A DNA stretch of 58,736 bases from an uncultured Oscillospiraceae bacterium (GTDB lineage: Bacteria; Bacillota; Clostridia; Christensenellales; CAG-138): NCBI GenBank assembly GCA_964437665.1, contig CAYTHS010000004.1, forward strand, positions 1 to 58,736, written 5' to 3'. A model generated the notes under the pieces. The model saw nothing but the letters and a program-made list of their open reading frames with translations. It ran no database searches and was not told where the DNA came from. This document shows positions 7,268 to 37,441 of the stretch, in pieces. The translations under genes and the position numbers were made by a program. The first letter of the stretch is position 1. Every line of letters starts with the position of its first letter.

Positions 7268-7322
7268 AGAATCCTCCAGGTTATGCAGCTGCCTGCAAAT
7301 ATAGGACGCGCAGGCGGTTGCG

Positions 7323-13417: not shown

Positions 13418-13434
13418 GTGAAAAAAAGCGCCTC

Positions 13435-15756: not shown

Positions 15757-15814
15757 GAAATAACCACCTTTACCGAACTGGTGCTTGTGCAAAAGACCTG
15801 TATGCTATACACAG

Positions 15815-18680: not shown

Positions 18681-18691
18681 GCTCACCCCCG

Positions 18692-21016: not shown

Positions 21017-21934
21017 TCAGGAGAACGTCTTTTTGTCCCGACGCATGCGGCGGCGGGAATACATGCTTGCAGCGATCAGCGCGCCGAGAAACGGCAGCAT
21101 CTGCACCACGCGCGCGGGGAAGCCGCTCGTCGCCTGCAGGATGTCGCCCAGCGCGGAGAGCGCGCCGAGCGCCCAGGCGGAAAACAGCACTGTATAGGGG
21201 TTGCTTTGGGCGAGGATGACGACCGCCATGGCCAGCCACCCGCGCCCATTGGTCATGCCGGTGAATCCGCCCACAAAGATTCCCTGGTTCAGCGAAAGCG
21301 AAGCGCCGGCTAGTCCGCAGAGCAAGCCGCAGAGCGCGTAGGAAGCATAAATCATCCCCGCCACGGGAATGCCGCGCGCGGAAGCAACCCATTCGCTGAT
21401 GCCGACCGCGCGGAGACGCCGCCCGAATGCGGTTTTAAAGATCACCGCGTAGAGCACGGCTACGAGGACGATCGCCAGATAGTCCAGCAAGGTATGGTTG
21501 CTGAGCACCTGATTGACATAGGGGATGCTTTCAATCAGCGGTGTGGCGAGCTTGACGAGGCGCGGCGCATAAGGATAGATGATCGAACCCTGCGAGCTGG
21601 TGAGCACGAAGATCAGAAACGTGGTTAGTCCGGTGCCGAGGATGTTGACAGCCATGCCGGCGATGTAGATGTCCACGCCGAGGCGGATGCTCATAAACGC
21701 CATCAGAAGCCCGACGGCGACGGTGACGCTTATACCCATCAGAAGACCGAGCAAAAGGCTGTTCCAGAGGTTGGCAAAATAGAGCGAAAAGAAAGCGGAG
21801 AAGAGCATCATGCCTTCCATGCCGAGATTGAAACGGCCGGACAGCCCGGTCATCATACCGCCGAGCGAGCAGAGTATCAGCGGCGTGCCATAGGCGATCA
21901 TCGTGTAGAGGAATCCCGAAACAAACTCGTTCAT
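21017..21934 (-). CDS. Nucleoside-type ABC transporter permease
   Basis: PLILCSLGG...SGRFNLGMEG, T.FGRRLRAVG, GRGWLAMAVVI. Confidence 0.9.
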   Translation of the reverse strand: MNEFVSGFLYTMIAYGTPLILCSLGGMMTGLSGRFNLGMEGMMLFSAFFSLYFANLWNSLLLGLLMGISVTVAVGLLMAFMSIRLGVDIYIAGMAVNILGTGLTTFLIFVLTSSQGSIIYPYAPRLVKLATPLIESIPYVNQVLSNHTLLDYLAIVLVAVLYAVIFKTAFGRRLRAVGISEWVASARGIPVAGMIYASYALCGLLCGLAGASLSLNQGIFVGGFTGMTNGRGWLAMAVVILAQSNPYTVLFSAWALGALSALGDILQATSGFPARVVQMLPFLGALIAASMYSRRRMRRDKKTFS

Positions 21935-22989
21935 GCGCCGGCCGCCTCCTTTTTACGGGTTTTTCCGCGCCGATGTGAACCGGTCAAAAATTCGATGAGC
22001 CGTTCGCTGGTCACGAGCAGCAGGATCGCGCCCTGGATGATCTGGGAAACGTCCGGCGTGATGTCCGCAAACAGCGCCGCGCACTCCGCACCCTTGGTCA
22101 GGTATGCAAAAAACAGCGATACAGGCAAGACGAGCAGCGGATGATTGCGGCTGATCATCGCAATGGAAAGGCCGCTCCATCCGATTCCGCAGAGCTGGTT
22201 GCGCACCCGAAACGACGTGCAGAGCACGTACGTCATGCCGCCTACGCCGCTTAGGCCGCCGGAAAGCAACATTGCAAAGCCCGCGACCGCCGCGGTGCTT
22301 ACGCCGCCGTAGCGCGCAAACACAGGATTCTGGCCCGTCATGCGGATTTCATAGCCGATACGCGAGCGCCGCAACGCAAAGTAGATGACGGCCGCGAGCG
22401 CGAGTGCAAGGAACAGCGTTGTATTCAGGTCGGAAGGGGAAAGGATTTTTGCAAAGCGGAACGCCTCCGGTACGGCCTGCGTCGTCACGCCCTGATCGGA
22501 ATTCATGTCGCGCAGGGGCCCTTCCACCAGCATGAAGACGAGATAGAATACCACATTGGCGAGCATCAGAGAGGACATCATCACGTCCAGGTCGAACCTG
22601 CGCTTTAGGAAGTTGCAAACTGCCGCGAGCAGCGCGCCGCCCGCGAATGCCGCAACGAACATCAGCGGAACCGCCGCCGCGGCCGGCCAGCCCTCCATCG
22701 CTACAGCCGCCATTGTACCTGCGAGCATACCAAAGTATACCATGCCTTCGAGTCCGAGGTTCCAAACCGAGGCCGTGAACGAAACGCTTGCGGCCAGACC
22801 GCAGATGATCAGCGGCACGGCGGTGTTGAGCATGTCGCCGAAAAAGTATGCGCTTGAAAACGGGCCAACGAAGAAATACCGGAGAGCGGCGGCCGGTTCG
22901 TCGCTGCAGAGCAGGATAACCACAAGCGCCATGACCAGCCCCGAAAGGATTACCAGCAGTTCAAACAGCGTACGTTTCGCCTGTTTCAT
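21931..22989 (-). CDS. Nucleoside-type ABC transporter permease
   Basis: WNLGLEGM, IGYEIRMTGQNP.FARYGG, G.GWSGLSIAMI.RNHP. Confidence 0.9.
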   Translation of the reverse strand: MKQAKRTLFELLVILSGLVMALVVILLCSDEPAAALRYFFVGPFSSAYFFGDMLNTAVPLIICGLAASVSFTASVWNLGLEGMVYFGMLAGTMAAVAMEGWPAAAAVPLMFVAAFAGGALLAAVCNFLKRRFDLDVMMSSLMLANVVFYLVFMLVEGPLRDMNSDQGVTTQAVPEAFRFAKILSPSDLNTTLFLALALAAVIYFALRRSRIGYEIRMTGQNPVFARYGGVSTAAVAGFAMLLSGGLSGVGGMTYVLCTSFRVRNQLCGIGWSGLSIAMISRNHPLLVLPVSLFFAYLTKGAECAALFADITPDVSQIIQGAILLLVTSERLIEFLTGSHRRGKTRKKEAAGA

Positions 22990-24542
22990 GCATGCGCCCC
23001 CTTTTCGTTCGTGGGCTGCATGCGCCGGATGCCAAGCATATATTCACCGATTTCCTCGCGACTGAGCGACGCGCCGTTTTGCAGGTTGGCGGTGATTTCT
23101 CCGCCGCGCATGACGAGCACGCGGTCTGAGAGTTCCAAAATTTCGTTGATATTGCTCGAAACGAGCAGGATAGCCATGCCCCGCTCGCGCAAAAAAAGCA
23201 TTTCGTCGTGAATATAGCGTGCCGAGAGCACGTCCAGCCCCATCGTGACCTCCGCGGCGAGCAGCAGCTTCGGCTTGGCCGAGAGTTCGCGCGCGAGGAT
23301 GGTCCGTTGGATGTGCCCGCCGGAGAGCCCGCCAACGACGCGCCGTCCGTCCGAAACCTTGATATTGTAGCGGCTTACAAGCTCGTCTGTGAGCGCATTG
23401 AGCGGTTTTGCGCGCAGCAGGCCGTGCCTGCAGTACGGTGCTTTGTTCCGCCGGTCAATCAGCAGATTTTCCGAAACGGAAGCGCTCGCGCAGGAGCCTA
23501 CGTGGATGCGGTCCTCGGGGATGTAACTGACGCCGGCGTTTCGCCGTGCGCTGGGCGAAAGCCGCGCGACGCTTTCGCCGCAGAGCAGGATTTCACCGCC
23601 GCTTGCTTCCCGGAGGCCGAAGAGCGCCTCGAGCAGTTCCTGCTGGCCGTTGCCGTTGACGCCCGCGACGCCGACGATTTCGCCTGCACGGATGCGGAAG
23701 CTTGCGTTTTTCACCATGTCGAGCGGACCGTTTTTTACGGTAAGGTTTTGCACACGCAGTACGCATGCGCCCGCATCAAGCGGCCCCCGCGTCTCTTCGG
23801 GCGCGAGTGCCTGCCCGACCATGAGGCGCACCGTCTCCGCGGCGTCGAGGTCTTCGGTCGGTCCGGTGAATACCGCCTCGCCGTCGCGCAGAACGGTCAC
23901 TTCGTCGGTGACGTCGAGCACCTCCTCGACCTTGTGACTGATATAGACGATGGTTTTTCCGGCGGCCTTCAGCATCCGAATGGTGTCTAATAATCCCCTG
24001 ACTTCCTGTTCGACCAGCACGGAGGTGGGTTCGTCGAAGACGAGCAACTCCGCCCTGCCGTTGAGCACGCGCATGATCTCGACCTTCTGCCTTTCACCCA
24101 TCGAGAGCGTGCCGACTTTCCGGTCGAGTTCGATGGAGAAGCCGCATTGCTCCGCAGCGGCCGCGGCGGCCTTTTTTGCGGCCTTTTCGTCCACAAAACC
24201 GAACGCTTTGACCGGTTCCATACCGAGTACGACGTTTTCGACGACTGTGTATTCGTCCAGCAGCGAAAAGTGCTGATGCACCATGCCAACGCCGTGTTTT
24301 GCCGCGGCAAGCGCATTTTTGATGCGTACGGGCTCGCCGCAGAGCAGGATTTTACCCGTGTCCATATGCTCTACGCCCGAAAGAATTTTCATGAGCGTGG
24401 ACTTGCCCGCGCCGTTTTCGCCGAGCAGACCGTGTACCGTGCCTTTCTTCACGCAGAAGTCCACGCCCTTGAGCGCGTGCACCTCGCGGCTGAACGAACG
24501 GTATGTTTTTGTGATGCCAAGCATCTGCAGATAGTCCGGCAT
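22986..24542 (-). CDS. Nucleoside/sugar ABC transporter double ATPase (NupA-like)
   Basis: GENGAGKSTLM, GMVHQHF, DEPTSVL, YIPEDR, LSGGHIQR. Confidence 0.92.
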   Translation of the reverse strand: MPDYLQMLGITKTYRSFSREVHALKGVDFCVKKGTVHGLLGENGAGKSTLMKILSGVEHMDTGKILLCGEPVRIKNALAAAKHGVGMVHQHFSLLDEYTVVENVVLGMEPVKAFGFVDEKAAKKAAAAAAEQCGFSIELDRKVGTLSMGERQKVEIMRVLNGRAELLVFDEPTSVLVEQEVRGLLDTIRMLKAAGKTIVYISHKVEEVLDVTDEVTVLRDGEAVFTGPTEDLDAAETVRLMVGQALAPEETRGPLDAGACVLRVQNLTVKNGPLDMVKNASFRIRAGEIVGVAGVNGNGQQELLEALFGLREASGGEILLCGESVARLSPSARRNAGVSYIPEDRIHVGSCASASVSENLLIDRRNKAPYCRHGLLRAKPLNALTDELVSRYNIKVSDGRRVVGGLSGGHIQRTILARELSAKPKLLLAAEVTMGLDVLSARYIHDEMLFLRERGMAILLVSSNINEILELSDRVLVMRGGEITANLQNGASLSREEIGEYMLGIRRMQPTNEKGAHA

Positions 24543-24585
24543 GAGAACAGTTCCTTTCCGCTGGCCTGCGCGGGATGAACGGCGT

Positions 24586-25695
24586 CTATTCGTCGATCGG
24601 CGCGCGCGGGTCTATCGTTCCGTCGATCAGCCCCTGATAAGCGGCCTGCATCTTTTCGAGAATGTCCCCCGGGACCTTCTCCTGCGTGACGGGGTCGTCG
24701 AACGTAAACGAAATCACGCCCTCGGCGGCGCCGACGGTACGGCCCGTGCCGTATGCAAGCGTGCCGGTCACCGCGCCGTATGCCGCGTCGTATGCCGCCT
24801 GATAGCCCTGCACGAGCGTACAGCCGACGATTGTGTCCGGTGAGAGCGATATGGCGTTGTTGTCGTTCGCCACGGCGTATTTATTCTGTGTTTCGGCTTC
24901 GGTCACGCATCCGTAGGCGGAGGCGCCGGTGGTATAGTACACGACGTCAGCGCCCTGCGCGAACAGCGCGCGCGTAACGTCCGCGCCCTTCTGCGGGTCC
25001 ACCCAGTCGCCAATAATCGAATTGAGGACTGTGATATTCTCACCGGCGGCCATCACGCCGTTGGTAAAGCCGGTTTTGACGTCCACCTCCCAGGCGTCGT
25101 ACACGTCCGTAAACACGAGGCCGACGACAAGGTCGGCATTAGCGCGTTCCATATCGCTCTGTGTGATCAGTCCGCAAAAGTATCCGCCGAGGTAACCGAG
25201 CTGGTAGAGGTCGAAAGACACGCCCCATACCGTGGACGGGATAACGCCGCCGTCGAACTGGCTTTGATACCCGATCAGGTCGGCGTCGATAAGCACAAAC
25301 TTCTGATCAGGATAGGATTTGAGTGTTTCTTTGACGCAGTAACGCATCACGTCCGTCGTGGTAAAAATCACGTCATAAACACCCGCCTCCGCGAGGCTCG
25401 TCAGATATTTACCGTAAGCCGTCCACTGGTCGCCGCCTTCGACCACCTTCGGTTCGGGTGCGCCGAGGTCCGAACAGGCCGTGCGGATGCCGTCTGCGAT
25501 CATTTGGAAAATTGCATTTTCACCTTCGATGCCGGGTAGCATCAGCGCGGTTTTGAAATCTTCGTAGGCGCTTCCGCCGGAGCTTTCGGAGGTTTCGTCC
25601 GAGGCCCCGTCCGCGGAGGGCGCGGCTTCTCCGCAGGCGGCGGCAAAGAGCAGCAGCAGACAGAGCAGAATGGCGAGGATTGCTTTGCGTTTCAT
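24586..25695 (-). CDS. BMP family ABC substrate-binding lipoprotein
   Basis: Lipobox AAACG, GYLGGYF.G, F.NGV, GADVVY...GAS..G. Start refined to ATG at 25695. Confidence 0.85.
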   Translation of the reverse strand: MKRKAILAILLCLLLLFAAACGEAAPSADGASDETSESSGGSAYEDFKTALMLPGIEGENAIFQMIADGIRTACSDLGAPEPKVVEGGDQWTAYGKYLTSLAEAGVYDVIFTTTDVMRYCVKETLKSYPDQKFVLIDADLIGYQSQFDGGVIPSTVWGVSFDLYQLGYLGGYFCGLITQSDMERANADLVVGLVFTDVYDAWEVDVKTGFTNGVMAAGENITVLNSIIGDWVDPQKGADVTRALFAQGADVVYYTTGASAYGCVTEAETQNKYAVANDNNAISLSPDTIVGCTLVQGYQAAYDAAYGAVTGTLAYGTGRTVGAAEGVISFTFDDPVTQEKVPGDILEKMQAAYQGLIDGTIDPRAPIDE

Positions 25696-25727
25696 GTCCG
25701 GATTCCTCCTTAATGATGTTTTGGGCG

Positions 25728-26675
25728 TTATACGAGCAGTTCGGGGTACAGGGAACCTGCGCGGAACGCCTTGCCGCACGCCGGATCGAAGACTTCAGCT
25801 ACGGCGAGCTTGTTGATATGCTGCAGGTTCGGGATTTTGAAAAAATCGCCGCCCGCCTGATCGAGCAGGTCGGAAAAGTACGCACCAAAGATATCCGCCG
25901 ACTCAAACGCGAGTTTTTTTGCAAGCTTCTCCGGGTCGAGACCGGAGGTTTCGTTCAATGTGAGGCGGGAAAACGCGCCATAGTGCAGAAAATCGTCAGG
26001 AAGCAGCGCTTTTCCGCTCTTTGTTTTTGCGCCGGGAGGGCAGACGGGGGCATAACCTGCGACGTACGAAACACAAGACGCGTCAATCCCGAGAGAACGT
26101 TCCATGGTAAAGATCATATTCTCGTTCATGCGGCCCGCGATCTGCGCCGCACCGAGCGTGCTGTCCTGTGCGGCTACGAGCAGGGTCAGTTTCTCCGGCG
26201 AACAGCCGGCGGCGTCCGCCAACAAAGAAACCCAGCGGTCATCCGGCGTTTCGTCCGCCTGCACGAGCGCGCACAGACTGCCGCCGGACGGGTCGCTTGG
26301 ATCGCCGATTTCTTCCGTGTGCTCCAGGTGCAGTTTGAGCGGACCGGAGATCATATGACCGGAAAACGAGTGCGCGGACTGCAGTGCGAGCGCCGCAAGA
26401 CGCGGATATGCGGTTTCGGAGCGGACAAACGGGTACGTCCGGTCACACAACGGCGCGGAGTATGCCCGCGTTTCGGCCAGCCCGCCTTGGCAAAGCGCCG
26501 CAGCCAGCGCGCCGGCGGCCGTGCTGCCGGGCGTCTCGTTTTCCACGGTTATCAGCAAAGCGCCGCAGTGCGCACGGCTGGTGACGAGTCCGTATGCGCC
26601 GGCGTTTTGCGTTAGTTCGCCGATCAGCGCTGCACAGTTCGATCCGATTTTGCCGAGGGTCGGTTTTTCGCGCAT
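25728..26675 (-). CDS. Divergent methenyl-H4MPT cyclohydrolase homologue (Mch-2)
   Basis: GS..AG...A..CQGGL, P.LAAL..Q, SGP, P....LA...GC.PE.L.LLVA...S..G.AQIAGRMNE, G.APVCP, LHYG. 315 aa. Alignable by eye to Mch-1. Confidence 0.65.
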   Translation of the reverse strand: MREKPTLGKIGSNCAALIGELTQNAGAYGLVTSRAHCGALLITVENETPGSTAAGALAAALCQGGLAETRAYSAPLCDRTYPFVRSETAYPRLAALALQSAHSFSGHMISGPLKLHLEHTEEIGDPSDPSGGSLCALVQADETPDDRWVSLLADAAGCSPEKLTLLVAAQDSTLGAAQIAGRMNENMIFTMERSLGIDASCVSYVAGYAPVCPPGAKTKSGKALLPDDFLHYGAFSRLTLNETSGLDPEKLAKKLAFESADIFGAYFSDLLDQAGGDFFKIPNLQHINKLAVAEVFDPACGKAFRAGSLYPELLV

Positions 26676-26708: not shown

Positions 26709-27917
26709 CTAGAGCGCTTTGATTTTTTCACCGAGCGCTTCCAGTTCCGCTTCGCGTTCGCGGTCGGCTTCGCTTTGCGGACAGATATCCGTGCTCAGCG
26801 CTCCGGTCGGGCAAACGTCCGCGCATGCACCGCAGGCCCGGCACAGATCGGTATCGACATGCATGTTGGGGTAGTCGAGCGAACGCGCGCCGTAACTGCA
26901 TATGGTTACGCAGCGGCGGCAGTTCGAGCAGCCGCGCGCGCCGGTGCGCGCGTTGGCGTAAGGTTCAAAGGTGAATTTAAGCCGTGAAACCACGTCTGAT
27001 TCCGGCAGGAACGGCAGTACAGCGCCGCGCGCGGATTCGATATCCGGATACCCGAGTTCAGCAAGCAGAGAGGAAAGGTCGCGGCAAAGGCGTTCGACAA
27101 CGTCGATACCGCGCAGGATGCCGATCGTGCAGATGCCGACACAGGAGCAGCCGGCCATGAAATATTCCACCGCGTCGTGCGCGCTCATGCAACCGCCGGA
27201 TCCATAGAGGTTGCTAAAATCCGTGCGGCGCTTTGCGATACCTGCGTTGACATGCAGGCTCAGCGGCCGGAGCGCTTCGCCGCTCATCCAGCCGCGCCCG
27301 TCCGCACCGGCCAGCGCTGGTCGCGCATGCTCTACGTCGATCTTCAGCACGGGACCGATGGAGTCGATTGCGCAGATGCCGTCCGCGCCGTGTTCGATGC
27401 ACCGTATCCCCGCTTCGACCGCATCCGGCCAGTTGGTGGAGAGCTTGCAGACTACGGGGATATCCACGAGGTTTTTCGCGGTCTCGAGCATCGGGAGCAT
27501 CGCTTCTTCCGAATAGGAAACCAGTTCAATCATGTCCGCGCCTGCTTTCGCCGCGTCCGGAACGATCACGCGCGCTTCCTCAGGCGTGTGCCCGACGGAT
27601 GCAATCACGACCGCGCCGGCTTTTTTAGTCAGCGGGATTTCGCGCTCGTACCATTGTTCACGCTCCAAATCCGACCATTTTTCGCAGTTGACGAGCGAAC
27701 TGTGGCCGAACGCGGCGATATGCCGCACGGGGTTGATGGCGCGGCCGATGCGGATGGTCTTGGTCACAACCGCGCCGCAGCCTGCGCGGTGTGCGCGTAT
27801 CAGCCCCTCCGCATTGTAGCCAAGCGGTCCTGAACTAAGGATGAAAGGCGTTTTCAGCGGGACGCCGCAAAGCTCGGTCGAGATATCGGCTCCGGTAAGA
27901 GTGTTCGGTTCAAACAT
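26709..27917 (-). CDS. Dihydropyrimidine dehydrogenase PreA-like FMN TIM-barrel with C-terminal 2x[4Fe-4S], atypical active site
   Basis: PFILSSGP, GAVVTKT, KLSTN, GWMSG..LRPLSL, GSGG. C-terminal CSNCRRCVTIC and CRACGACADVCP. Confidence 0.8.
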   Translation of the reverse strand: MFEPNTLTGADISTELCGVPLKTPFILSSGPLGYNAEGLIRAHRAGCGAVVTKTIRIGRAINPVRHIAAFGHSSLVNCEKWSDLEREQWYEREIPLTKKAGAVVIASVGHTPEEARVIVPDAAKAGADMIELVSYSEEAMLPMLETAKNLVDIPVVCKLSTNWPDAVEAGIRCIEHGADGICAIDSIGPVLKIDVEHARPALAGADGRGWMSGEALRPLSLHVNAGIAKRRTDFSNLYGSGGCMSAHDAVEYFMAGCSCVGICTIGILRGIDVVERLCRDLSSLLAELGYPDIESARGAVLPFLPESDVVSRLKFTFEPYANARTGARGCSNCRRCVTICSYGARSLDYPNMHVDTDLCRACGACADVCPTGALSTDICPQSEADREREAELEALGEKIKAL

Positions 27918-29244
27918 GTTGGGTTTCCTCCTGTATTCCGGCCCAGAACTCCTTTGCGCATTGAGAAAGCTCCGCCTTTGTTTCGGCGGCGTTTACGGTG
28001 AGCAGACGGTGGTCCCTCTTAAGGAAACGGCCATTCGCCATCACGTCACAGACGTTCTGCGGGTTGCGGAAGAGTACGAGCTGGTCATAAACGTTATACC
28101 GGTTGATCGGGGTGGGCGTGTCGAGATCGATGGTGATCAGGTCCGCTTTGCAGCCCGGTTCAAGCCGGCCGGTATCCGGCAGTCCGGCCGCCCGTGCGCC
28201 GAGCGAGGTCGCCATGCGAAAAACGGCTTCGGCAGGCATCACGTTCGTGTCCTGACAGTGCGCTTTGGGGATTAAAAAAGCGCCGCGCATGATTTCGAAA
28301 AAATTATTGATATAGCCGTCCGAGCCGAGCCCGACCGTCATGCCGCGCGAGAGCATATCGCTCACTGGGGCGACCCCGCCGCCGACTTCGCAGTTGGACA
28401 GCGGCATATGTACGGCGCGCACGCCGCGTTTTGCGAGGATGTCCAGTTCGGCGGACGTAACCTGTACGCACTGGGAGGCGAGTACGGTTTCGTCCAGAAA
28501 GTTAAGCTCGTCGTATACTTCGACCGGACGTTTACCGTAGTGCGCAAGCGACCAGTCCGGCTCGAAAACGCTTTCCGAGAGGTGCATATGGATCCCGCAT
28601 CCGAGTTCGCCCGCAATGCGTTTTGCTTCCTTAATATATTCCGGGTTGCAGGTAAAGAGCGTGTGGATGCTCATCATGCCGGTTACGGAGGCTCCGCAAC
28701 GGTTGTGTGCGCGCACGAATCCGGCATTTTCCATAAGTCCCAGTCTGGCGGCCTTTTCGCCCGCCCGCTGACAGGCCTCGAATGTGAGGATTGCGCGAAG
28801 GCCTGCCTGCCGTGCAACGTCCCGCCCGATTTCCAGCGCGTGCGGAATTGCGTTCGGGGCTTCGAGCACATCCAAGAAGGTCGTCACGCCGCAGTCAATC
28901 ATCTCCGCCATGCCGTATGCGCTCGTTGCGCGGACAAGATCGTGATCGATGCGGTTTTCAACACACGGCCACCAGAAATCTTCCAGAAAACTGGAAAACC
29001 CGCCCGCGGGCACGGTCGCCGTGATGCCGTGGGAAAGCACGCCGTAAAGGTGCGTGTGGCCGTTGACGAATCCCGGAGCGATCAGCTTGTCCGGCACGTC
29101 GATAACGGAATCGCCCGGTTCGGGGGCGAGCGCCGCGTTTGGGCCGACCTGCAGAATGCGATCGCCCGACACGACCACGCCCGCGTTTTCAATCAGACCG
29201 TCCGGTCCTAAAAGGTATCCGCCGCGGATGACGATGCGGGACAT
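27910..29244 (-). CDS. Amidohydrolase, SsnA-like
   Basis: PGFVNGHTHLYGVLSHG, GVTTFLD, HTLFTC, IHMHLSES, HMPLSN, LGSDG. Start refined to ATG at 29244. Confidence 0.85.
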   Translation of the reverse strand: MSRIVIRGGYLLGPDGLIENAGVVVSGDRILQVGPNAALAPEPGDSVIDVPDKLIAPGFVNGHTHLYGVLSHGITATVPAGGFSSFLEDFWWPCVENRIDHDLVRATSAYGMAEMIDCGVTTFLDVLEAPNAIPHALEIGRDVARQAGLRAILTFEACQRAGEKAARLGLMENAGFVRAHNRCGASVTGMMSIHTLFTCNPEYIKEAKRIAGELGCGIHMHLSESVFEPDWSLAHYGKRPVEVYDELNFLDETVLASQCVQVTSAELDILAKRGVRAVHMPLSNCEVGGGVAPVSDMLSRGMTVGLGSDGYINNFFEIMRGAFLIPKAHCQDTNVMPAEAVFRMATSLGARAAGLPDTGRLEPGCKADLITIDLDTPTPINRYNVYDQLVLFRNPQNVCDVMANGRFLKRDHRLLTVNAAETKAELSQCAKEFWAGIQEETQHV

Positions 29245-29330: not shown

Positions 29331-30722
29331 CTATCTGGATATACGAGGGAGAACATGGATCGCTTCCCCGGTGAAACGCTGGACGCACTCCATAAACGCC
29401 TCCGAGAGTGTCGGGTGTGCGCGCATGGTGTGTGCGGCCTCTTCAACGGTGAGCATCGCCTTCATGGACGTTGCCGCCTCGGCGATCAGGTCGCTTGCAT
29501 GCGGCCCGGCGATATGCACCCCGAGGATACCACTGCAATCGCTCTTGGAGAGGATTTTGATAAATCCGTCCGTTTCACCGAGCGAAAGCGCTTTACCGTT
29601 GCCTGCAAAATGGTAACGAGAGACAGTGTAATCGACGCCGCTTTCCCTAAGTTGCGCCTCGGTTTGGCCAATGGCGGCGATTTCAGGGAAGGCGAATACG
29701 CAGTTTGGCACGAGTGCGTAATCCACGCGCGTGTGCATGCCGCACATGCGTTCGACGCAGACGCGGCCCTCGTCGGAGGCAACGTGGGCAAGCATAACGC
29801 GCCCGGTCACGTCGCCGATGGCGTAGATCCCGTTTACGTTCGTGCGGTAGTTTTCGTCAACCGGGACGCCCTTGCGGCCGAAAGCGACGCCCGCGGCTTC
29901 AAGGTGCAGCCCGTCCGCGCAGGGTACGCGGCCCGCGCAGGAAAGTACATGCGTGCAGTCGATCGAAACGGGGCCGTTCGGTCCGTCGACCGAAACGCAC
30001 AGATTACCAGGTGCTCCCTCGATCCCGGTCACTTTGGTTCCGGTCAGGATCGAAACGCCCTGTGCGCGGAGCCGTTTCGCGGCGAATTTTGCGAGTTCGC
30101 CGTCGAGGGTGGAGAGGATGGAAGGCAGGAATTCCACAATCGTGACCTGCGCGCCGAACGCGCGGTAAACGCCCGCCAGTTCCGTGCCGATCACGCCGCC
30201 GCCGACGAGCACGAGGTTTTCCGGGATTTCGTTCAGCCGGAGCGCGGAAGCGCTGTCCAGGACATAGTCGCGTTCAAAACCGGGAATCGGCAGTGTTACG
30301 GATTTGCTTCCGGTCGCGACGATAAAAGCGTCCGCCGTGCAGGTCTCGTTCCCGACACATAGGGTATTTGCGTCCAGGAAGGAGGCTTCGCCCGGCATAA
30401 CGGTCACGCCGTTGGCCTTTAGCAGCGAACGTACGCCGGAAACCAGCGTTGCGACAACTTTTTCCTTGCGCGTACGGGCTGCCTCGAGATCGAGACGAAC
30501 CGCTTCGGTGTGTACGCCGTAACGAGAGGCGTTTTTCGCCTCCATGAGCACCTCGGCGGTGCGATAGAGCGTTTTGGTCGGGATGCAGCCGTGGTTGAGA
30601 CACGTGCCGCCGATGCGTTCGCGTTCGATCAAAGCGACTTTTTTCCCCAGTTGTGCGGCGCGGATAGCCGCGACGTAGCCGCCCGGTCCGCCGCCGATGA
30701 CGATCAGTTCAAAATGCAGCAT
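29331..30722 (-). CDS. lpdA: Dihydrolipoamide dehydrogenase (E3)
   Basis: GGGPGGYVAAIRAAQLG, GGTCLNHGCIPTK, AIGDV, LAHVA..EG, HPTLSE. Confidence 0.95.
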   Translation of the reverse strand: MLHFELIVIGGGPGGYVAAIRAAQLGKKVALIERERIGGTCLNHGCIPTKTLYRTAEVLMEAKNASRYGVHTEAVRLDLEAARTRKEKVVATLVSGVRSLLKANGVTVMPGEASFLDANTLCVGNETCTADAFIVATGSKSVTLPIPGFERDYVLDSASALRLNEIPENLVLVGGGVIGTELAGVYRAFGAQVTIVEFLPSILSTLDGELAKFAAKRLRAQGVSILTGTKVTGIEGAPGNLCVSVDGPNGPVSIDCTHVLSCAGRVPCADGLHLEAAGVAFGRKGVPVDENYRTNVNGIYAIGDVTGRVMLAHVASDEGRVCVERMCGMHTRVDYALVPNCVFAFPEIAAIGQTEAQLRESGVDYTVSRYHFAGNGKALSLGETDGFIKILSKSDCSGILGVHIAGPHASDLIAEAATSMKAMLTVEEAAHTMRAHPTLSEAFMECVQRFTGEAIHVLPRISR

Positions 30723-30731
30723 GACGGCGCG

Positions 30732-32021
30732 TCACCTCCAGTCGGTTTCGTTCAGGATATCGACGACTTCCTGCAGATAGCGGCAGGCGGGCGCGCCGTT
30801 GAGCACGCGGTGATCGTAGGTCAGGCAAAGATTCATCACAGGCTCGATAAACACCCCGCCGTTCTTGGCGATCGGCATGTCCCGCAGTTTGCATACGCCA
30901 AGGATCGTTGTTTCCGGCGGGTTCAGAATCGGCGTGAACGAGGTCGCGCCCGCCATGGCGAGGTTTGTGACCGTCGTGGCAGCGTCGCCGAAGTCGCTTT
31001 CGGACAGCCCGCCGCTTTTGGAGCGTGCGGCGAGGCCGGAAACGTCCCGGCAGAGCGCGCGCAGCGTTTTTTTGTCCGCATTGCGCACGACGGGAACGAG
31101 CAGCCCGCGTTCGGTATCGACCGCTACGCCGATGTGCACCCCTTCCGGCAGAAGGAAGCTTTTTTCATCATGATACTGCATCCGCACGTCCTCGCGGGAA
31201 GCGAGCGCGCGGGACACGGCAAATACGATCATCGCCGTGTATGAAAGCTTGATTCCTTCTGCTGCATAGATCGGTTTGAGCCGTCTGTACGCCGAAGCGA
31301 GCAACGCAAAGCCGCTCTCGATGCAGACGGTTGTCTGCGCGGCGGTTTCGAGACTCTTTTTCATCGCGGCGGCGGTCGCGCGCTGTACACTGTTCATCGG
31401 GACGACCTTCACGCTCGCGGGCTTGCCGTACGTTTTCACGTCCGCGACGGTCACCATGCCAAGCAGCCCGGTGCCGCGGATATGCTCGTAAGAAAGGTGT
31501 TGCTTTTCGGCGAGCATCCTTGCGCGCGGCGTGATGGAAACCGGGTGTGCGGGGGATTGTTCCTTCGGCATGTCTGCCGCGGCGCGCACGTCGTCGATTG
31601 TGATTTTCCCATCGCGGGCGGTGCCGGTCACTGTGCTTGGATCTAATCCACGTTGCTGCATGACGGTTTTTGCGCGCGGGGTGGCGGATACCGCATAACC
31701 GGCGGACGACGGTTCAATCGCCGGCTTCGGCGCGGGTGCGGATTGTACAGCCCCGTGCGAAGACGCGGGGGAGGCGGACTCGCCCGGTTCGCCGATTGAG
31801 CAGATGGGTTCCCCGCATGGCGCGGAGTCGCCGGGTTCCAAAAAATATCGAAGCATCGTGCCGTCCGCAGAGGCGACGGCGTCGTTGGTGAGCTTTTCCG
31901 CTTCGATCACGGCGATCGGATCGCCGCGTTTCACCTTGGCGCCGATGGGAACGAGCCATTCGGAGACGACGCCTTCTTCCATAGACAGCCCGAATTTGGG
32001 CATAATTTCAATCGTTGCCAT
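30732..32021 (-). CDS. Dihydrolipoamide acyltransferase (E2), AcoC-like with two peripheral-subunit-binding domains
   Basis: MPKFGLSMEEG, lipoyl motif EAEKLTND, ATPRAK and ITPRAR binding domains, GLLVPVVR, TYDHRVLNG. Confidence 0.9.
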   Translation of the reverse strand: MATIEIMPKFGLSMEEGVVSEWLVPIGAKVKRGDPIAVIEAEKLTNDAVASADGTMLRYFLEPGDSAPCGEPICSIGEPGESASPASSHGAVQSAPAPKPAIEPSSAGYAVSATPRAKTVMQQRGLDPSTVTGTARDGKITIDDVRAAADMPKEQSPAHPVSITPRARMLAEKQHLSYEHIRGTGLLGMVTVADVKTYGKPASVKVVPMNSVQRATAAAMKKSLETAAQTTVCIESGFALLASAYRRLKPIYAAEGIKLSYTAMIVFAVSRALASREDVRMQYHDEKSFLLPEGVHIGVAVDTERGLLVPVVRNADKKTLRALCRDVSGLAARSKSGGLSESDFGDAATTVTNLAMAGATSFTPILNPPETTILGVCKLRDMPIAKNGGVFIEPVMNLCLTYDHRVLNGAPACRYLQEVVDILNETDWR

Positions 32022-32108
32022 TTTTTGCCCTCCCTGGGCGCGTATTTGTACTCGCGATGAAAAAAACGGGCCGAGGATGCGTTTCATCGCTGCCAAACGA
32101 CCGCCTTT

Positions 32109-33086
32109 TTAGAACGCCGCAATCTCTTTTGCGGCGCGTACAACGTCCGCAGACCTGAGCATATAATAGTCTTCGAGCACAGGCGCGAATGATACCGGCA
32201 CATCCAGGCACGTCACGCGTGCAACCGGCGCGGCGAGGTATTCAAAGTATTTTTCACCGATCATGGCGGAAATCTCCGCCGCCCAGCCGCCGACCTTCGG
32301 GCCTTCCTGCGCGATCACGAGACGCCCCGTCTTTGCGACCGACGCGGCGATCAGTTGCTCGTCGTAGGGCTTGATCGTGCGCAGATTGATCACTTCCGCC
32401 GAAACGCCTTCCTTTTCGAGTTCAGCTGCGGCTTTAAGCGCCATGCCGACGGTGATTTGCAGCGCGGCGATAGTCACGTCCGTGCCCTCGCGCTCGATCA
32501 CCCCCTTGCCGAGCGGCAGGGTATAGGGTTCCTCCGGCACGTCGCCCTTTGCGTTAAGCAGCATTTTATGCTCCAAAAAGAGCACCGGATCATCGCTCCG
32601 GATGGCGGAAATCAAGAGTCCTTTGGCTTCATACGGCGTGGCGGGGGAAACGATCACGAGGCCGGGAGTGCTTAAAAACCAGCTTTCGACCGTCGCGGAA
32701 TGATGGTAGGCGCAGCGGATACCCGCGCCCTGCGGCGCGCGGATGACGACGGGGCAGTTCGCCTCGCCCTGAAACATGAAGTTGAGCTTGGCGGAGCTGT
32801 TGACAATCTGGTCGAACGCAACGCCCGCGAAGTCCGCAAACATGATCTCCGCGACGGGCCGCAGCCCCGCGATGGCTGCGCCGTTTGCAAGGCCGACGAT
32901 TGCCGACTCGGAGAGTGCAGTGTCGAAAATGCGGTCCGGCCAGCGGTGATAGATGTTCTGCGTCAGGCCGAAATCGCCTCCCATTTTGGCGACGTCCTCG
33001 CCGAGCACGAACACGGAATCGTCCCGTTCCATCTCTTGGATCAGGGCTTCGTTGATCGCCTTGGTATAGGTCAGTTTGCGGCTCAT
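32109..33086 (-). CDS. TPP-dependent 2-oxoacid/acetoin dehydrogenase E1 beta
   Basis: VLGEDV, DTALSESAIVG, PVAEIMF.DF, HHS..VE, DDPVLFLEHK. Confidence 0.92.
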   Translation of the reverse strand: MSRKLTYTKAINEALIQEMERDDSVFVLGEDVAKMGGDFGLTQNIYHRWPDRIFDTALSESAIVGLANGAAIAGLRPVAEIMFADFAGVAFDQIVNSSAKLNFMFQGEANCPVVIRAPQGAGIRCAYHHSATVESWFLSTPGLVIVSPATPYEAKGLLISAIRSDDPVLFLEHKMLLNAKGDVPEEPYTLPLGKGVIEREGTDVTIAALQITVGMALKAAAELEKEGVSAEVINLRTIKPYDEQLIAASVAKTGRLVIAQEGPKVGGWAAEISAMIGEKYFEYLAAPVARVTCLDVPVSFAPVLEDYYMLRSADVVRAAKEIAAF

Positions 33087-34066
33087 CGTTCCACCTCCAC
33101 CGTAAATCCTTCGTATACGTGCGAAACCGCTTCCGAAACGTCCGGTACGGGGCTTTCGATCGAGAAACGCAGCATTTCTTTTATCTGCGCGTCTACATCG
33201 CCCTCGATGGCCCCGAGTTCTTCTTCGGATACTTTTTCGCGTTCCTTAAGTACGTTTCTCGTGAGCAGCACGGGGTCGCGCTTTTTCCAGTAGGCGAGCT
33301 CTTCTTCCGGCCGGTAGGAGGCGGGGTCTCCTGCAAAGTGCCCCTGCCATCGGTAGGTAACGAACTCGATCAGCGACGGGCCGCCGCCGCTTCTGGCGAT
33401 CTGCACCGCCTGTTCCGTGGTTTCGACGACGGCTTCCACATCGTTTCCGTCCACACGCCACGAAGGCACGCCGTAGCCGTCCGCCCACTGGCGCAGTTCT
33501 TGCTGCGGGTGCGCGGTGCCGCAGGGCGTCGAGATCGCGTAGCCGTTGTTGATGAGGCAGTAGACCACCGGCAGTTTCCAGGTTGCGGCCATGTTCAGGC
33601 TCTCGTGGCAGGTGCCTTCACCAAGCGTTCCATCGCCCATGAATACGGCGGAAACGTCGTCCGTGTGGCGGTATTTGGCCGCGAACGCCGTTCCGAGCGC
33701 GGTGACGACGGTCGAACCCTGAATGCCGTTGAAGCCGTGATTCCGGCAGGACCAGTCGTGGATATGCATGGAACCGCCGCGGCCGCCGTTGACGCCCGTG
33801 GCCTTGCCGAAAATCTCGGCCATAACGTATTTGGGATCGGTTCCGCATAAAAGAATCGCCCCGTGGCCGCGGTGGTCGGGGTATTTGTAGTCTGTTTTTC
33901 TCAGCGCGCGCACCACGCCCGCCTGACAGGCTTCCTGCCCGGTGGAAAGGTGCACGAAACCGGGGATGGTGCCGTTCGCTGCATATTCCTTGATCACGTC
34001 TTCAAAATTGCGGATCAAAAACATATCGCGGTAAAGTCCCTTGAGACGCTCTTTTTCCAATGCCAT
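33083..34066 (-). CDS. TPP-dependent 2-oxoacid/acetoin dehydrogenase E1 alpha
   Basis: PGFVHLSTGQEA, HRGHG, GRGGSMH, GDG..GEG...ESLNMAA.WKLPV....NN, TYRW.GH..GD. Confidence 0.92.
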   Translation of the reverse strand: MALEKERLKGLYRDMFLIRNFEDVIKEYAANGTIPGFVHLSTGQEACQAGVVRALRKTDYKYPDHRGHGAILLCGTDPKYVMAEIFGKATGVNGGRGGSMHIHDWSCRNHGFNGIQGSTVVTALGTAFAAKYRHTDDVSAVFMGDGTLGEGTCHESLNMAATWKLPVVYCLINNGYAISTPCGTAHPQQELRQWADGYGVPSWRVDGNDVEAVVETTEQAVQIARSGGGPSLIEFVTYRWQGHFAGDPASYRPEEELAYWKKRDPVLLTRNVLKEREKVSEEELGAIEGDVDAQIKEMLRFSIESPVPDVSEAVSHVYEGFTVEVER

Positions 34067-34287
34067 AATCATTCCTCCGATTTCAGATGCTCGACGCTGT
34101 CTGCGGTTTCTATAGATTCCCCGCGCGGCGCAGAAATGCCGGAGCGGGCGTTGTATGCATAAGAGGTGTGGCTGCCGGATGGGCGAGAACCGCTGTTTTG
34201 CGGCGCGGCGCCGCAGATACGACCGATAAGATTTTTAATGGAGAGACGTATTTTTGAATGGCTGGCGCGAATGTATCGCGCCAGCCG

Positions 34288-35217: not shown

Positions 35218-35229
35218 GCACATTTGTGC
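35218..35229. promoter_or_regulatory. Palindromic candidate operator GCACATTTGTGC
   Basis: Lies in the second divergent promoter region and shares its core with 15881-15894. Confidence 0.5.
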
Positions 35230-35321
35230 ATGTTTATCCATTCCTGCTGAAATGGGGCTGTTTTTCACGCAGGATTACGGTAGAATCATGTATATACTGT
35301 TGGAGAGGCGGTGAGCGGGCG

Positions 35322-35651
35322 GTGCGCAGAGTGACGCGGCATCCCGTGATAGAGATTGAACCGAAGGCTGAAATAACGATTGTTGCAGACGGAAAAACGC
35401 TGTATGCGCACGAGGGCGAAACCGTCGCCGCTGCATTGAGCGCCAACGGTATACGCGTGTTCCGGCATACGGCGAAACGGCACGAGCCACGCGGGATTTT
35501 CTGCGGGATTGGCCAGTGTACGGACTGCGTGATGGAGATCGACGGCGTTCCGAACCGGCGCGCGTGCATGACGATCGTGCGAGAAGGCATGGTCGTCAAT
35601 ACGCAGCAAGGTAACGGGAAATGCGGGGTAGGATGCGATGCAGATGTATGA
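35322..35651 (+). CDS. (2Fe-2S)-binding protein, HcnA / sarcosine oxidase alpha N-terminal-like
   Basis: GETVAAAL..NG, PRGIFCGIGQCTDC.M.IDG.PN.RAC. GTG start. Confidence 0.88.
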   Translation: MRRVTRHPVIEIEPKAEITIVADGKTLYAHEGETVAAALSANGIRVFRHTAKRHEPRGIFCGIGQCTDCVMEIDGVPNRRACMTIVREGMVVNTQQGNGKCGVGCDADV

Positions 35652-36723
35652 CGTGATCGTCGTCGGCGCGGGACCGGCCGGCCTCGGCGCTGCCATCGAA
35701 GCGGGAAAACATGGTGCAAGCGTGCTGCTGCTGGATGAAAATGCGCGTCCCGGCGGACAGCTCTTCAAGCAGATCCACAAATTCTTTGGATCCAGGGAAC
35801 ACTATGCGGGCACGCGTGGGTATGCCATCGGTCAAAACCTGCTTGCCGAAGCGGACGCGCTCGGCGTGGAGTTCCGGCTTGGCATGCGCGTTTGGGGCGT
35901 ATACCCGTACGGCGGCGTGTCCGCGACGGACGGTGAAACGAGCGTGCGTTTTTTTGGAAGGAAAATCATCCTGGCAACGGGCGCGTCTGAAAACGCGTTG
36001 AGTTTTCCCGGCTGCACGCTGCCCGGCGTGATGACCGCAGGCGCGGTGCAGACTATGGTCAACGTCCAGCATGTGCTGCCTGGAGAGCGGTTTGTGATGA
36101 TCGGCTCCGGCAATGTTGGGCTGATCGTGGCGTATCAGTTGCTGCAGGCGGGTGCGGAAGTTCGCTGCATCCTCGAAGCCGCGCCCAGAATCAGCGGTTA
36201 CGGTGTGCACGCGGCGAAGGTCAGGCGCGCTGGCGTGACGGTTTATACAGGGCGTACCATCGTCCGCGCGAACGGCAAAGACGGCGTGGAAAGCATCGTT
36301 ACGGCGGAAGTAGACGCGTGTTTTTGCCCGGTTGGAGGCACGGAAAAGACGATTGAATGCGACACGGTCGCGCTGGCGGTCGGACTTTCGCCGAGGATCG
36401 AGCTAGCAGGCGTGAGCGGCTGTGAAATGGCGTATTCAGCCGCACTCGGCGGCATGCTGCCGCTGCATAGCGACGATATGGAGACGACCTGCGAAAACAT
36501 GCTGATAGCGGGCGACCTTGCCGGCATCGAGGAAGCGAGTACGGCGCTGGACGAAGGCCGCATGGCGGGCTGCCGCGCGGCGTATCTGCTCGGCTGCCTG
36601 ACAAAAGAAGAATACGAAAAGGAAAAACGCGCGCTGCTTTCCCGGCTGAACGCGCTGCGGGCGGGGCCGTTCGGGGAAAAACGGCGTACGGCCAAGGAGG
36701 CTCTATGGAACACGATGCGGTGA
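35638..36723 (+). CDS. FAD/NAD(P)-dependent oxidoreductase, HcnB / opine oxidase A / proline dehydrogenase alpha-like
   Basis: VVGAGPAGLGAA, GGQLFKQ, ILATGASE..L.FPG.TLPGVM, IAGD.AGIEEA..A..EG. Confidence 0.88.
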   Translation: MQMYDVIVVGAGPAGLGAAIEAGKHGASVLLLDENARPGGQLFKQIHKFFGSREHYAGTRGYAIGQNLLAEADALGVEFRLGMRVWGVYPYGGVSATDGETSVRFFGRKIILATGASENALSFPGCTLPGVMTAGAVQTMVNVQHVLPGERFVMIGSGNVGLIVAYQLLQAGAEVRCILEAAPRISGYGVHAAKVRRAGVTVYTGRTIVRANGKDGVESIVTAEVDACFCPVGGTEKTIECDTVALAVGLSPRIELAGVSGCEMAYSAALGGMLPLHSDDMETTCENMLIAGDLAGIEEASTALDEGRMAGCRAAYLLGCLTKEEYEKEKRALLSRLNALRAGPFGEKRRTAKEALWNTMR

Positions 36724-37028
36724 ACGCCGAGATCGTCTGCCGCTGTGAGGAAGTCACTGCGGAGGAGATCATGGAGGCGATACGAAACGGCGCGGATTCG
36801 CTGGACGCGGTGAAGAGAGCCACGCGGGCGGGGATGGGATTCTGTCAGGGGCGCACCTGTAAGCGGCTGATCGCGCGCATGCTTTCCTGCTATTATGAAA
36901 TGCCGGTCGACCGGTTTTTACCGGGGAGCCTGCGTTTGCCGGTCGCGCCGGTCAAGCTCTCGCTGCTGGCGGAAACTGAGGATGTGCAGAACGGGAAAAC
37001 GGAGGACGGCGCATGCGAAAAATCCTGA
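36705..37028 (+). CDS. BFD-like [2Fe-2S]-binding protein
   Basis: IVCRCEEVT, KRATRAGMGFCQGRTC, R.PV.PV. Confidence 0.88.
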   Translation: MEHDAVNAEIVCRCEEVTAEEIMEAIRNGADSLDAVKRATRAGMGFCQGRTCKRLIARMLSCYYEMPVDRFLPGSLRLPVAPVKLSLLAETEDVQNGKTEDGACEKS

Positions 37029-37441
37029 TCGACTGCCGGGAAAGCATCCCATGTGATCCCTGCCGCTATGCTTGCCCCGCACATGCTATCGTGATCGAGG
37101 GCGACATTACGAACCTGCCGCAGGTGTTTCCGGAGCGCTGTACGGGCTGCGGGCTTTGCGTTGCGGCGTGTCCCGGCCAGGCGTGTTTCTTGGTGGACGA
37201 GTATTACGCCGAGGGGCGTGCAAGCGTGGATTTCCCTTACGAATACCTGCCGCTGCCCGAGGTGGGTATGCGCGTAACTGCGCGGGACAACGACGGTTGC
37301 GACGTATGCGAAGCGCTCGTGGAACAGGTGATTTTGCGCAAAAGCGCACAGAATACAGCCGTCGTGCGCGTGAGCGTGCCGAAAGAATTCGCATTCCACG
37401 TGCGCGGCATGAAGCCTCTCCGCTTTCGGGAGAGGGAATAG
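37013..37441 (+). CDS. 2x[4Fe-4S] ferredoxin-domain protein
   Basis: C..SIPCDPC..ACP and CTGCGLCVAACPGQA, plus the C-terminal PYEYLPLP..G domain. Confidence 0.88.
   Translation: MRKILIDCRESIPCDPCRYACPAHAIVIEGDITNLPQVFPERCTGCGLCVAACPGQACFLVDEYYAEGRASVDFPYEYLPLPEVGMRVTARDNDGCDVCEALVEQVILRKSAQNTAVVRVSVPKEFAFHVRGMKPLRFRERE

Follow-up and report, generated by a model that had tools for sequence, protein, structure and literature searches.

A cysteine-less enzyme of the dihydropyrimidine dehydrogenase fold, translationally coupled to an SsnA-like hydrolase, as a candidate purine reductase of anaerobic bacteria

The DNA considered here, which we refer to as the window, is a stretch of 58,736 nt from an uncultured Oscillospiraceae bacterium (assembly GCA_964437665.1, contig CAYTHS010000004.1), in which genes were annotated as far as about 38 kb. 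Within it lies a long minus-strand operon that encodes, in order, the E1alpha, E1beta, E2 and E3 proteins of a 2-oxoacid dehydrogenase complex, an amidohydrolase resembling SsnA, the predicted reductase that is our subject, a divergent Mch-like cyclohydrolase, a Bmp/PnrA-type binding protein, an ABC ATPase and two permeases, followed by a second deaminase-type amidohydrolase, a near-canonical Mch and a SoxB-like flavoprotein (Table 1). The stop codon of the SsnA-like gene and the start codon of the reductase gene overlap (AGGAGG-N8-ATGTTTGA), so that the two genes are translationally coupled. We present evidence that the reductase, from which the catalytic cysteine loop of its best-known relatives has been lost, belongs to a widespread clade of enzymes and that it probably acts on a purine.

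The 402-residue protein consists of a DHO_dh barrel (PF01180) and a Fer4 domain, as identified with Pfam; the PF01180 match scores 68 bits and covers residues 135-285 only. An AlphaFold2 model, built on an alignment of 85 sequences and with a mean pLDDT of 96.2, has pig dihydropyrimidine dehydrogenase (DPD) as its top fold match (TM 0.80 on the query) and also matches dihydroorotate dehydrogenase (DHODH) B of Lactococcus lactis. The fold is common to PreA, to domains IV and V of mammalian DPD and to L. lactis DHODH B (PDB 1H7W, 1GTE and 1EP3), and the reductase also has in common with these enzymes the Lys, Asn and Gly-Gly residues of the flavin mononucleotide (FMN) site and the C-terminal domain with two [4Fe-4S] clusters. 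In the family alignment of 85 sequences no variation is seen at K53, N77, K158 and G241-G242 of the FMN site or at the eight Cys of the two clusters, which probably serve as the wire through which electrons enter the enzyme.

We note that the reductase does not fit either of the families whose names it would most readily be given. PreA provides its best NCBIfam model (NF006183), and the combination of an FMN TIM barrel with a C-terminal 2x[4Fe-4S] domain is indeed that of PreA, but the score of 148.7 bits lies below the curated equivalog cut-off of 335, the Cys loop is gone, the substrate contacts have changed and a neighbouring PreT is absent. Searching the bacterium's own genome with E. coli PreT, we found no PreT/GltD-like gene on the window's contig; the query matched elsewhere, on contigs C5, C43 (within YgfK) and C128. 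Assignment to the class 1 DHODHs was likewise rejected, given that PyrD-type models score far under their cut-offs (119.6 bits against 270 for TIGR01037), that coverage of the barrel is partial and that the Cys loop is absent. A canonical PyrD, with the loop ELNISCPN, is encoded on contig C3 of the same genome.

The deletion in the active site is seen in each of the comparisons that we made. In a HMMER alignment the Cys-loop stretch of pig DPD is shrunk to ELVSYSEEAML; ADMIELVSYSEEAML of the reductase opposes the longer pig loop and AIDSIGP opposes ATNTVSG. When E. coli PreA and the genome's own PyrD were aligned with the reductase by MAFFT, a 15-column gap fell precisely across N-x-S-C-P. The region concerned includes residues 130-144 (IELVSYSEEAMLPML), and in the AlphaFold2 model strand 129-133 runs through a turn of only three residues (S134-Y135-S136) into helix 137-150; the loop deletion is therefore structural. 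Relative to DPD, then, the reductase has lost the Cys671 loop and carries Val for Asn668 and Asp-Ser for Asn736-Thr737. Val133 stands at the position of the pyrimidine-contact Asn of DPD, and AIDSIGP (residues 184-190) occupies the place of the usual INT or VNT, such that Asp185 aligns with Asn736, a residue with which DPD binds the pyrimidine. Within the short loop E131 and Y135 never vary among the 85 sequences, and at least 90% of these retain V133 and S134; a proton might be donated by Tyr135 or Ser134. The first-pass annotation of the window, a reading of the sequence made without database searches, had described the deleted Cys loop, the replacement of (I/A)NT by IDS, the retained FMN and [4Fe-4S] motifs and the lack of a PreT partner nearby, and all four observations hold.

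That annotation also left room for the deletion to be private to this genome, which it is not. A search of 5.8 billion proteins returned 416 matches to the reductase at E<=1e-10; among the best 120 of these (clusters at 50% identity or more), which are 51-82% identical to it, IELVSY and AxDSxGP are present in all 120. When 1.84 billion cluster representatives were scanned in full with HMMER, 116 clusters (50% identity) matched at E<=1e-30, and these fall into three loop groups: one with about 30 residues, VSY and Asp-Ser; one with about 34 residues, S-T-H-Y and Asn-Ser; and one with 42-47 residues, N-x-S-C-P and Asn-Thr. Short, Cys-less loops are thus the mark of a large radiation and a family-wide feature. 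A FastTree phylogeny, computed for the barrel region only and rooted on the genome's own PyrD, places the Cys-loop enzymes, E. coli PreA among them, at the base and the two Cys-less groups as sister clades, the window's reductase lying inside the one that we call the VSY clade.

The setting in which the second Cys-less group is found is the breakdown of uric acid, the anaerobic pathway for which was solved only in 2025, by two studies (Li et al., PMC12507026; Liu et al., bioRxiv 10.1101/2025.04.24.650524). In this pathway XdhD/DOPDH strips the 6-oxo group to yield 2,8-dioxopurine (PMC12507026; 10.1101/2025.04.24.650524), which is reduced by YgfK/DOPOR and whose ring is then opened by SsnA to give ureidomethyl-hydantoin, and later steps by HyuA, YgeW or UacY, YgeY and YgeX lead to pyruvate (PMC12507026). 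Clostridioides difficile has, in the place of YgfK, a PF01180 protein that lacks a flavin adenine dinucleotide (FAD) domain, named UacX (Q181U4), which is presumed to be ferredoxin-dependent and has been proposed to be a 2,8-dioxopurine ('yanthine') reductase (Li et al. 2025, Life Metab 4:loaf031, PMC12507026). In the literature that we searched there is no mention of the loss of the cysteine loop or of a second clade.

The window's reductase has much in common with UacX-type proteins, which we recognized by their position beside true SsnA and by the operational definition given in PMC12507026, the sequence of Q181U4 itself being outside the comparison. Both have the PF01180 barrel with 2x[4Fe-4S], a short Cys-free loop and the motifs N-x-E-x-W, S-x-G-P and W210 (Trp81 is invariant in the 85-sequence alignment, two UacX-like proteins included); both lack the FAD/NAD domain; and the genes of both lie in clusters for purine catabolism that also encode HyuA, YgeY, a hydrolase of the SsnA type and an enzyme of the XDH type. 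By domain content, and by its place in a uricolytic-type cluster, the reductase would thus pass for UacX. The definition, however, calls for a neighbouring SsnA of IPR017700/TIGR03314, and the partner encoded in the window reaches 252 bits where 455.5 would be required (252-263 bits on the SsnA models, with cut-offs of 455 and 444, and 27% identity to E. coli SsnA). Seven partner hydrolases from other loci score 242-280 bits against the cut-offs of 444 and 455.5, whereas E. coli SsnA reaches 710-738 bits on the same models. Moreover, the PF01180 proteins that flank true SsnA and HyuA (loci L120, L121 and L225) are only 31-34% identical to the reductase. Those adjoining true SsnA carry ELSTHY and INS, belong to the sister clade and are found in Clostridium aquiflavi, with close relatives in C. 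perfringens, Romboutsia faecis and others. We conclude that the window's reductase is probably not UacX but a representative of a separate sister clade.

Residue comparisons between 27 VSY-clade, 22 UacX-like and 25 Cys-loop sequences bear this out. Between position 129 and K158 the reductase has 30 residues, with ELVSY, and the UacX-type proteins have 34, with ELSTHY. All VSY-clade sequences (100%) have Asp at position 185, where Asn is found in 91% of the UacX-like and 68% of the Cys-loop sequences; position 135 is Tyr, His and Ser in the three groups, respectively; and position 261 is Gly in the VSY clade but Gln in both of the others. Common to the two Cys-less clades, as against the canonical enzymes, are S-x-G-P (188-189), Trp210 and Ser160. 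Asp185 is therefore the hallmark residue of the VSY clade, and its fixation argues for a substrate that presents NH or NH2 where uracil and 2,8-dioxopurine present a carbonyl.

Nor is the reductase YgfK/DOPOR (NADPH:2,8-dioxopurine oxidoreductase; TIGR03315, IPR017701), which is a protein of about 1000 residues; according to Pfam the reductase, at 402 residues, lacks the Fer4_20 and Pyr_redox_2 domains and with them the NAD(P)H module, and BLAST and hhalign reveal no more than local similarity. The N-terminal barrel of YgfK was also considered as a homologue and set aside, since the match comprises 35 columns around the phosphate site (G-W/Y-M-S-G...G-G), with an hhalign probability of 6.8% and an E value of 0.005. 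Nevertheless, both the reductase and YgfK (E. coli b2878) are thought to carry out a reductive dearomatisation coupled to an SsnA-type hydrolase, and the domain order of YgfK (barrel, Fer4_20, Pyr_redox_2, Fer4) is that of fused relatives of the reductase described below.

We examined 80 related loci fetched from named genomes, using tblastn with the window's proteins and with E. coli pathway proteins as queries. The loci come from Christensenellaceae, Oscillospiraceae, Lachnospiraceae (Dorea, Faecalimonas and Lacrimispora), Oscillibacter and Pseudoflavonifractor, as well as from Peptococcaceae, Moorella, Anaerolineaceae, Spirochaetes, Cloacimonadota, Halanaerobiales and Atribacterota. An SsnA-like hydrolase is adjacent or near in 66 of them (median identity to the window copy 55%). 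Almost as regular is a paralogue of the XDH family, here termed XDHb, whose Mo subunit occurs in 58 loci (median identity 59%), its FeS subunit in 55 and its FAD subunit in 53. YgeY is found in 45, mostly directly after the reductase, HyuA in 28 and YgeW in 26. The usual order is SsnA-like, XDH(Mo), FAD, FeS, reductase, YgeY; in other genomes, that is, XDHb is placed between the SsnA-like gene and the reductase. Operons in Lachnospiraceae additionally hold two permeases of the NCS2 xanthine/uracil family and an M19 peptidase. The Mch, Bmp-ABC, 2-oxoacid dehydrogenase and SoxA/SoxB genes, by contrast, are limited to roughly the 10 closest loci, with the 2-oxoacid dehydrogenase subunits found in 7 or 8 of the 80, depending on the subunit.

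In 21 of the 80 loci this barrel belongs to a longer protein, of about 840 residues, in which Fer4_20 and Pyr_redox_2 (PreT/GltD-like) precede the C-terminal di-cluster domain (for example L037:10001-12541, encoding 846 residues, L030, L042, L069 of Candidatus Formimonas and L070 of Moorella). The inserted NAD(P)H module is 32% identical to the corresponding part of E. coli YgfK. We note that these fused ELVSY proteins are DPD-like and that their domain order matches that of YgfK exactly, being a permutation of the order in mammalian DPD. The fusions account for the absence of PreT, since they indicate that the barrel is fed through its clusters, and they favour the proposal of the first-pass annotation that electrons enter by way of the ferredoxin domain. 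The donor would be NAD(P)H when the barrel is fused and an external low-potential donor when it stands alone. The same annotation had suggested, as the source of electrons, the 2Fe-2S/FAD-NAD/BFD-like/2x[4Fe-4S] module at 35.3-37.4 kb of the window. This finds no support, as the module is present in only 8 of the 80 loci, where it tracks the SoxB-like gene rather than the reductase; it resembles accessory subunits of SoxB/Hcn/proline-dehydrogenase-type complexes and is more likely to be the partner of the SoxB-like flavoprotein.

The paralogous set coexists with the canonical pathway. In the bacterium's own genome an XdhD-like, FeS, YgfK and SsnA cluster lies on contig C43 (C43:11170-18038; locus L124), where the true SsnA scores 622 bits and directly adjoins a full YgfK that is 43% identical to the E. 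coli protein; YgeW and YgeY are encoded on contig C65 and XdhA/HyuA on C18, and there are five XDH-family large subunits in all. The cluster on C43 also neighbours a second set of E1/E2/E3 2-oxoacid dehydrogenase genes. More generally, a true SsnA, scoring above cut-off, is present in 36 of 41 genomes that carry a VSY-type locus, as against 21 of 399 sampled Clostridia, and in 17 of the 20 carrier genomes inspected it is flanked by a full YgfK. Both types of cluster are found in a genome of 4.1 Mb in one contig (30% GC; family of Romboutsia faecis; G321, reached via locus L169), which we take as C. difficile-like because its five-locus xdh layout fits the published description of C. difficile. 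At about 3.49 Mb (L225, C1:3478000-3497999) it holds YgeX, YgeY, an open reading frame (ORF) of 527 codons, SsnA, an NCS2 permease, a UacX-like protein, HyuA and a fused XdhD, and at about 2.2 Mb (L123, C1:2208500-2228499) YgeY, HyuA, a deaminase, FeS, an XdhD-like protein, an SsnA-like protein and a VSY-type reductase that is 45% identical to the window's. We found no discussion of such a second cluster in a C. difficile-like genome in the 2025 pathway literature searched. Taken together, the SsnA scores, the co-occurrence and the separate position of UacX indicate that the VSY module is an additional paralogous set, distinct from the UacX or YgfK step and present alongside YgfK-SsnA or UacX-SsnA in the same genomes.

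Our best reading, to which we would give a probability of about 55%, is that the window encodes a low-potential reductase, coupled to the SsnA-like hydrolase, for a purine that resembles 2,8-dioxopurine but is probably a different compound, and that the protein is within this reading an intact and active FMN and 2x[4Fe-4S] enzyme of the DPD fold. The substrate is probably not 2,8-dioxopurine itself because carriers hold a complete YgfK-SsnA set and because the substrate-site Asn is always Asp. In the reaction that we envisage, an oxo group would be removed from the base, or placed on it beforehand, by the XDH paralogue of the cluster; ferredoxin or another Fe-S donor would pass electrons to the two [4Fe-4S] clusters and on to FMN (in the fused relatives from NAD(P)H through FAD to the clusters and FMN); and a hydride would go from N5 of FMN to an electrophilic ring carbon, by analogy probably C6, of an oxopurine-type base. 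The accompanying proton would go to a ring nitrogen or be supplied by Tyr135 or Ser134, which would make the DPD cysteine dispensable and the carbon-protonating Cys loop something that could be lost, as it has been from the UacX-like proteins and, it would seem, from YgfK. The unstable dihydro product would be drawn on by immediate hydrolysis of the ring by the SsnA-like protein, much as Li et al. proposed for YgfK and SsnA, where the reduction is pulled forward only by SsnA and where this serves to explain the adjacency of ygfK and ssnA (PMC12507026). Translational coupling would provide the hydrolase in stoichiometric amount, and breakdown might be finished by YgeY, a HyuA-type enzyme and, in this window, perhaps enzymes of the Mch type.

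A bolder form of this proposal, which we put forward tentatively and would not ourselves bet on, is that the ELVSY reductase, the SsnA-like hydrolase and the three-subunit XDH paralogue make up a second, undescribed reductive route for cleaving a purine ring, one that many anaerobes, among them Lachnospiraceae of the gut, Oscillospiraceae and C. difficile-like genomes, would have in addition to the 2,8-dioxopurine pathway and that would act on a different purine, perhaps 8-oxopurine, 2-oxopurine, 6,8-dioxopurine or 2-amino-8-oxopurine. Asp185 would here read an NH or NH2 where UacX reads a carbonyl, and with the hydride going to a C=N-type centre no cysteine would be needed. A precedent for the logic, though for another class of substrate and likened by pathway logic alone, exists in Eubacterium barkeri, in which a Mo/Se hydroxylase is followed by a ferredoxin-dependent 6-hydroxynicotinate reductase and then by a ring-opening amidohydrolase (enamidase).

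The same pathway families (XDH type, SsnA type, HyuA, YgeY, YgeW and YgeX) would surround the reductase if it were simply a ferredoxin-linked isozyme of UacX or YgfK, acting on 2,8-dioxopurine with its own SsnA isozyme, both sets being kept for different donors or conditions; the sister relationship of the VSY clade to the UacX-like proteins and the way in which the fused forms mirror the domain order of YgfK are in keeping with this. It is unlikely, however, given that reductase, hydrolase and molybdoenzyme are all deep paralogues, at about 30% identity, rather than the redox parts of the set alone, that the change from Asn to Asp at the substrate site is fixed, and that most of the inspected carriers already hold YgfK beside SsnA. 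The existence of NAD(P)H-fused members of the VSY clade also means that the choice of donor alone leaves the duplication unexplained. The enzyme might instead reduce a non-purine N-heterocycle, such as a pterin, a lumazine or another bicyclic ring derived from a cofactor, with import by the Bmp or 'B6-like' ABC system and ring opening by the two Mch-like proteins, and it is the case that Mch paralogues, a Bmp-type protein, an ECF transporter and an MptN-like glutamate ligase all lie in the same island. We think this quite improbable, since those neighbours are confined to about 10 of the 80 loci, since the clade-wide partners are purine-pathway families, joined in Lachnospiraceae by NCS2 nucleobase permeases, and since the uric-acid pathway is present in 88% of carrier genomes.

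The architecture and best NCBIfam match of the reductase, and the presence of a hydantoinase and an M20 hydrolase within the island, might suggest a clostridial ferredoxin-dependent dihydropyrimidine dehydrogenase (PydA/PreA function) that reduces uracil or thymine and whose route is completed by the HyuA-like and M20 proteins. With a PreA score so far from its cut-off, with the Cys loop gone and the contacts corresponding to Asn668 and Asn736-Thr737 altered, and with tightest partners (SsnA-like and XDH-type) that a pyrimidine route could dispense with, there is little to recommend this idea. We give still less credence to the idea that the barrel is catalytically inert and that the subunit merely transfers electrons through its Fe-S clusters or acts as a scaffold. 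Loss of the canonical acid/base residue is what one would expect of such a protein, but the FMN-site and pocket residues are invariant, Y135, W81, D185 and W210 are newly conserved, the model is of high confidence and the related YgfK system is catalytically active. The first-pass annotation had proposed a reductase with different chemistry or a larger heterocyclic substrate, and had named 2,8-dioxopurine among the candidates. A larger ring, likely a purine-type nucleobase, and entry of electrons through the ferredoxin domain survive our analysis, as does the view that this is no ordinary uracil, thymine or dihydroorotate enzyme, and 2,8-dioxopurine is indeed the substrate of YgfK and the proposed one of UacX, the closest named relatives. 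The proposed donor module, on the other hand, has been discarded as unsupported, and neither the coupled SsnA-like hydrolase nor the setting as a paralogue of the reductive purine pathway had been recognized.

Several considerations weigh against a purine reductase distinct from UacX and YgfK. We read the substrate from the neighbouring genes only, and the activity of the clade from sequence and a model. The Mch, Bmp-ABC and 2-oxoacid dehydrogenase context, being confined to so few loci, also means that the window variant may handle another ring, for example a pterin-like one. The co-occurrence with YgfK-SsnA could reflect isozymes with different donors rather than different substrates. Furthermore, our equation of the ELSTHY type with UacX follows from gene order and the paper's operational definition, and although the Methods of PMC12507026 describe an assay of UacX, its main text reports no UacX result.

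If a purine reductase of this kind is indeed at work, many of the same anaerobes may possess in full a paralogous trio of molybdoenzyme, reductase and hydrolase for ring opening, and part of the turnover of purines or N-heterocycles in gut and sludge may be unaccounted for. The anaerobic uric-acid pathway is being pursued for probiotics against gout and hyperuricaemia. The existence of a whole radiation of the DPD/DHODH fold without the textbook catalytic cysteine also raises the question of the proton donor, and of whether a C=C or a C=N bond is reduced. For annotation, ELVSY with Asp-Ser, ELSTHY with Asn-Ser and NxSCP with Asn-Thr could serve as markers of the clades, as Cys-less proteins are currently mislabelled PreA or dihydroorotate dehydrogenase.

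Features of the window are collected in Table 1. The SsnA-like ORF as listed extends to 29388, where it begins with a GTG and shares 58 nt with the E3 gene; translation probably starts at Met49 (MSRIVIRGG...), at 29244, because homologues and the hidden Markov model alignment begin near residue 49. XDHb is one of two XDH-family molybdoenzymes in the window. A plus-strand ORF at 12189-13421, which matches no known family but has tblastn matches in 41 of the 80 loci, was considered as a clade-specific partner of the reductase and discarded as an antisense artefact of the minus-strand XDH FAD-subunit gene; the FAD and 2Fe-2S genes are real, and the enzyme is therefore a complete three-subunit molybdenum hydroxylase. 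We propose that the YgeY-family hydrolase cleaves a ureido or amide bond downstream and that the Bmp/PnrA-ABC system takes up the substrate of the reductase.

Table 1. Positions of the reductase gene, its motifs and the neighbouring genes in the window
Feature	Position	Strand	Remarks
Reductase gene	26709..27917	minus	402 aa; FMN barrel + C-terminal 2x[4Fe-4S]; Cys-less 'VSY' clade
[4Fe-4S] pair, CxxCxxCxxxC x2	26811..26930	minus	C330/333/336/340 + C359/362/365/369
Asp185-Ser186	27360..27365	minus	In place of the DPD/DHODH substrate-binding Asn-Thr
Short loop E-L-V-S-Y-S, residues 131-136	27510..27527	minus	Stands where the mobile N-x-S-C-P catalytic loop was
N77-x-E79-x-W81 motif	27675..27689	minus	Asn common to DPD and reductase
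SsnA-like amidohydrolase	27910..29244	minus	Upstream of reductase; proposed ring-opening partner
2-oxoacid (pyruvate-type) dehydrogenase complex, E1alpha-E1beta-E2-E3	29331..34072	minus	Upstream, same operon
Divergent Mch-like cyclohydrolase	25728..26675	minus	33 nt downstream of reductase; own Shine-Dalgarno
Bmp/PnrA-type binding protein + ABC ATPase + two permeases	21017..25779	minus	Downstream, same operon
SoxB-like flavoprotein	17532-18695		Operon member
XDHb, Mo subunit	13435-15792	minus	Whole unit 12081..15792
XDHb, FAD subunit	12542-13600	minus	
XDHb, 2Fe-2S subunit	12081-12578	minus	
D-hydantoinase/dihydropyrimidinase (HyuA-like)	15946..17325	plus	
YgeY-family M20 hydrolase	6059..7567	minus	NF009555, 427 bits, over cut-off
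2Fe-2S / FAD-NAD / BFD-like / 2x[4Fe-4S] module	35226..37441	plus	

Other genes recur near the module. In 15 of the 80 loci (for example L015:12416-13345 and L024:6606-7553), nine of which also have two NCS2 permeases, the gene after YgeY or after the reductase encodes a Peptidase_M19 protein (renal-dipeptidase-like), which may provide an alternative ureido- or amide-cleaving step. A creatininase-family amidohydrolase is encoded near the module at L043:17879-18646 and in six other loci, from Christensenellaceae and Oscillibacter. The window itself, although bacterial, encodes two Mch-like cyclohydrolases (18692-19660 and 25728-26675), for which a cyclic formamidine (a C8-H imidazoline) left after reduction of a purine would, as speculation, be a chemically apt substrate. 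Lastly, near the purine genes lies a gene for a RimK-family ligase (2025-2945) whose top match, at 226 bits against a cut-off of 350, is the tetrahydromethanopterin:alpha-L-glutamate ligase MptN.

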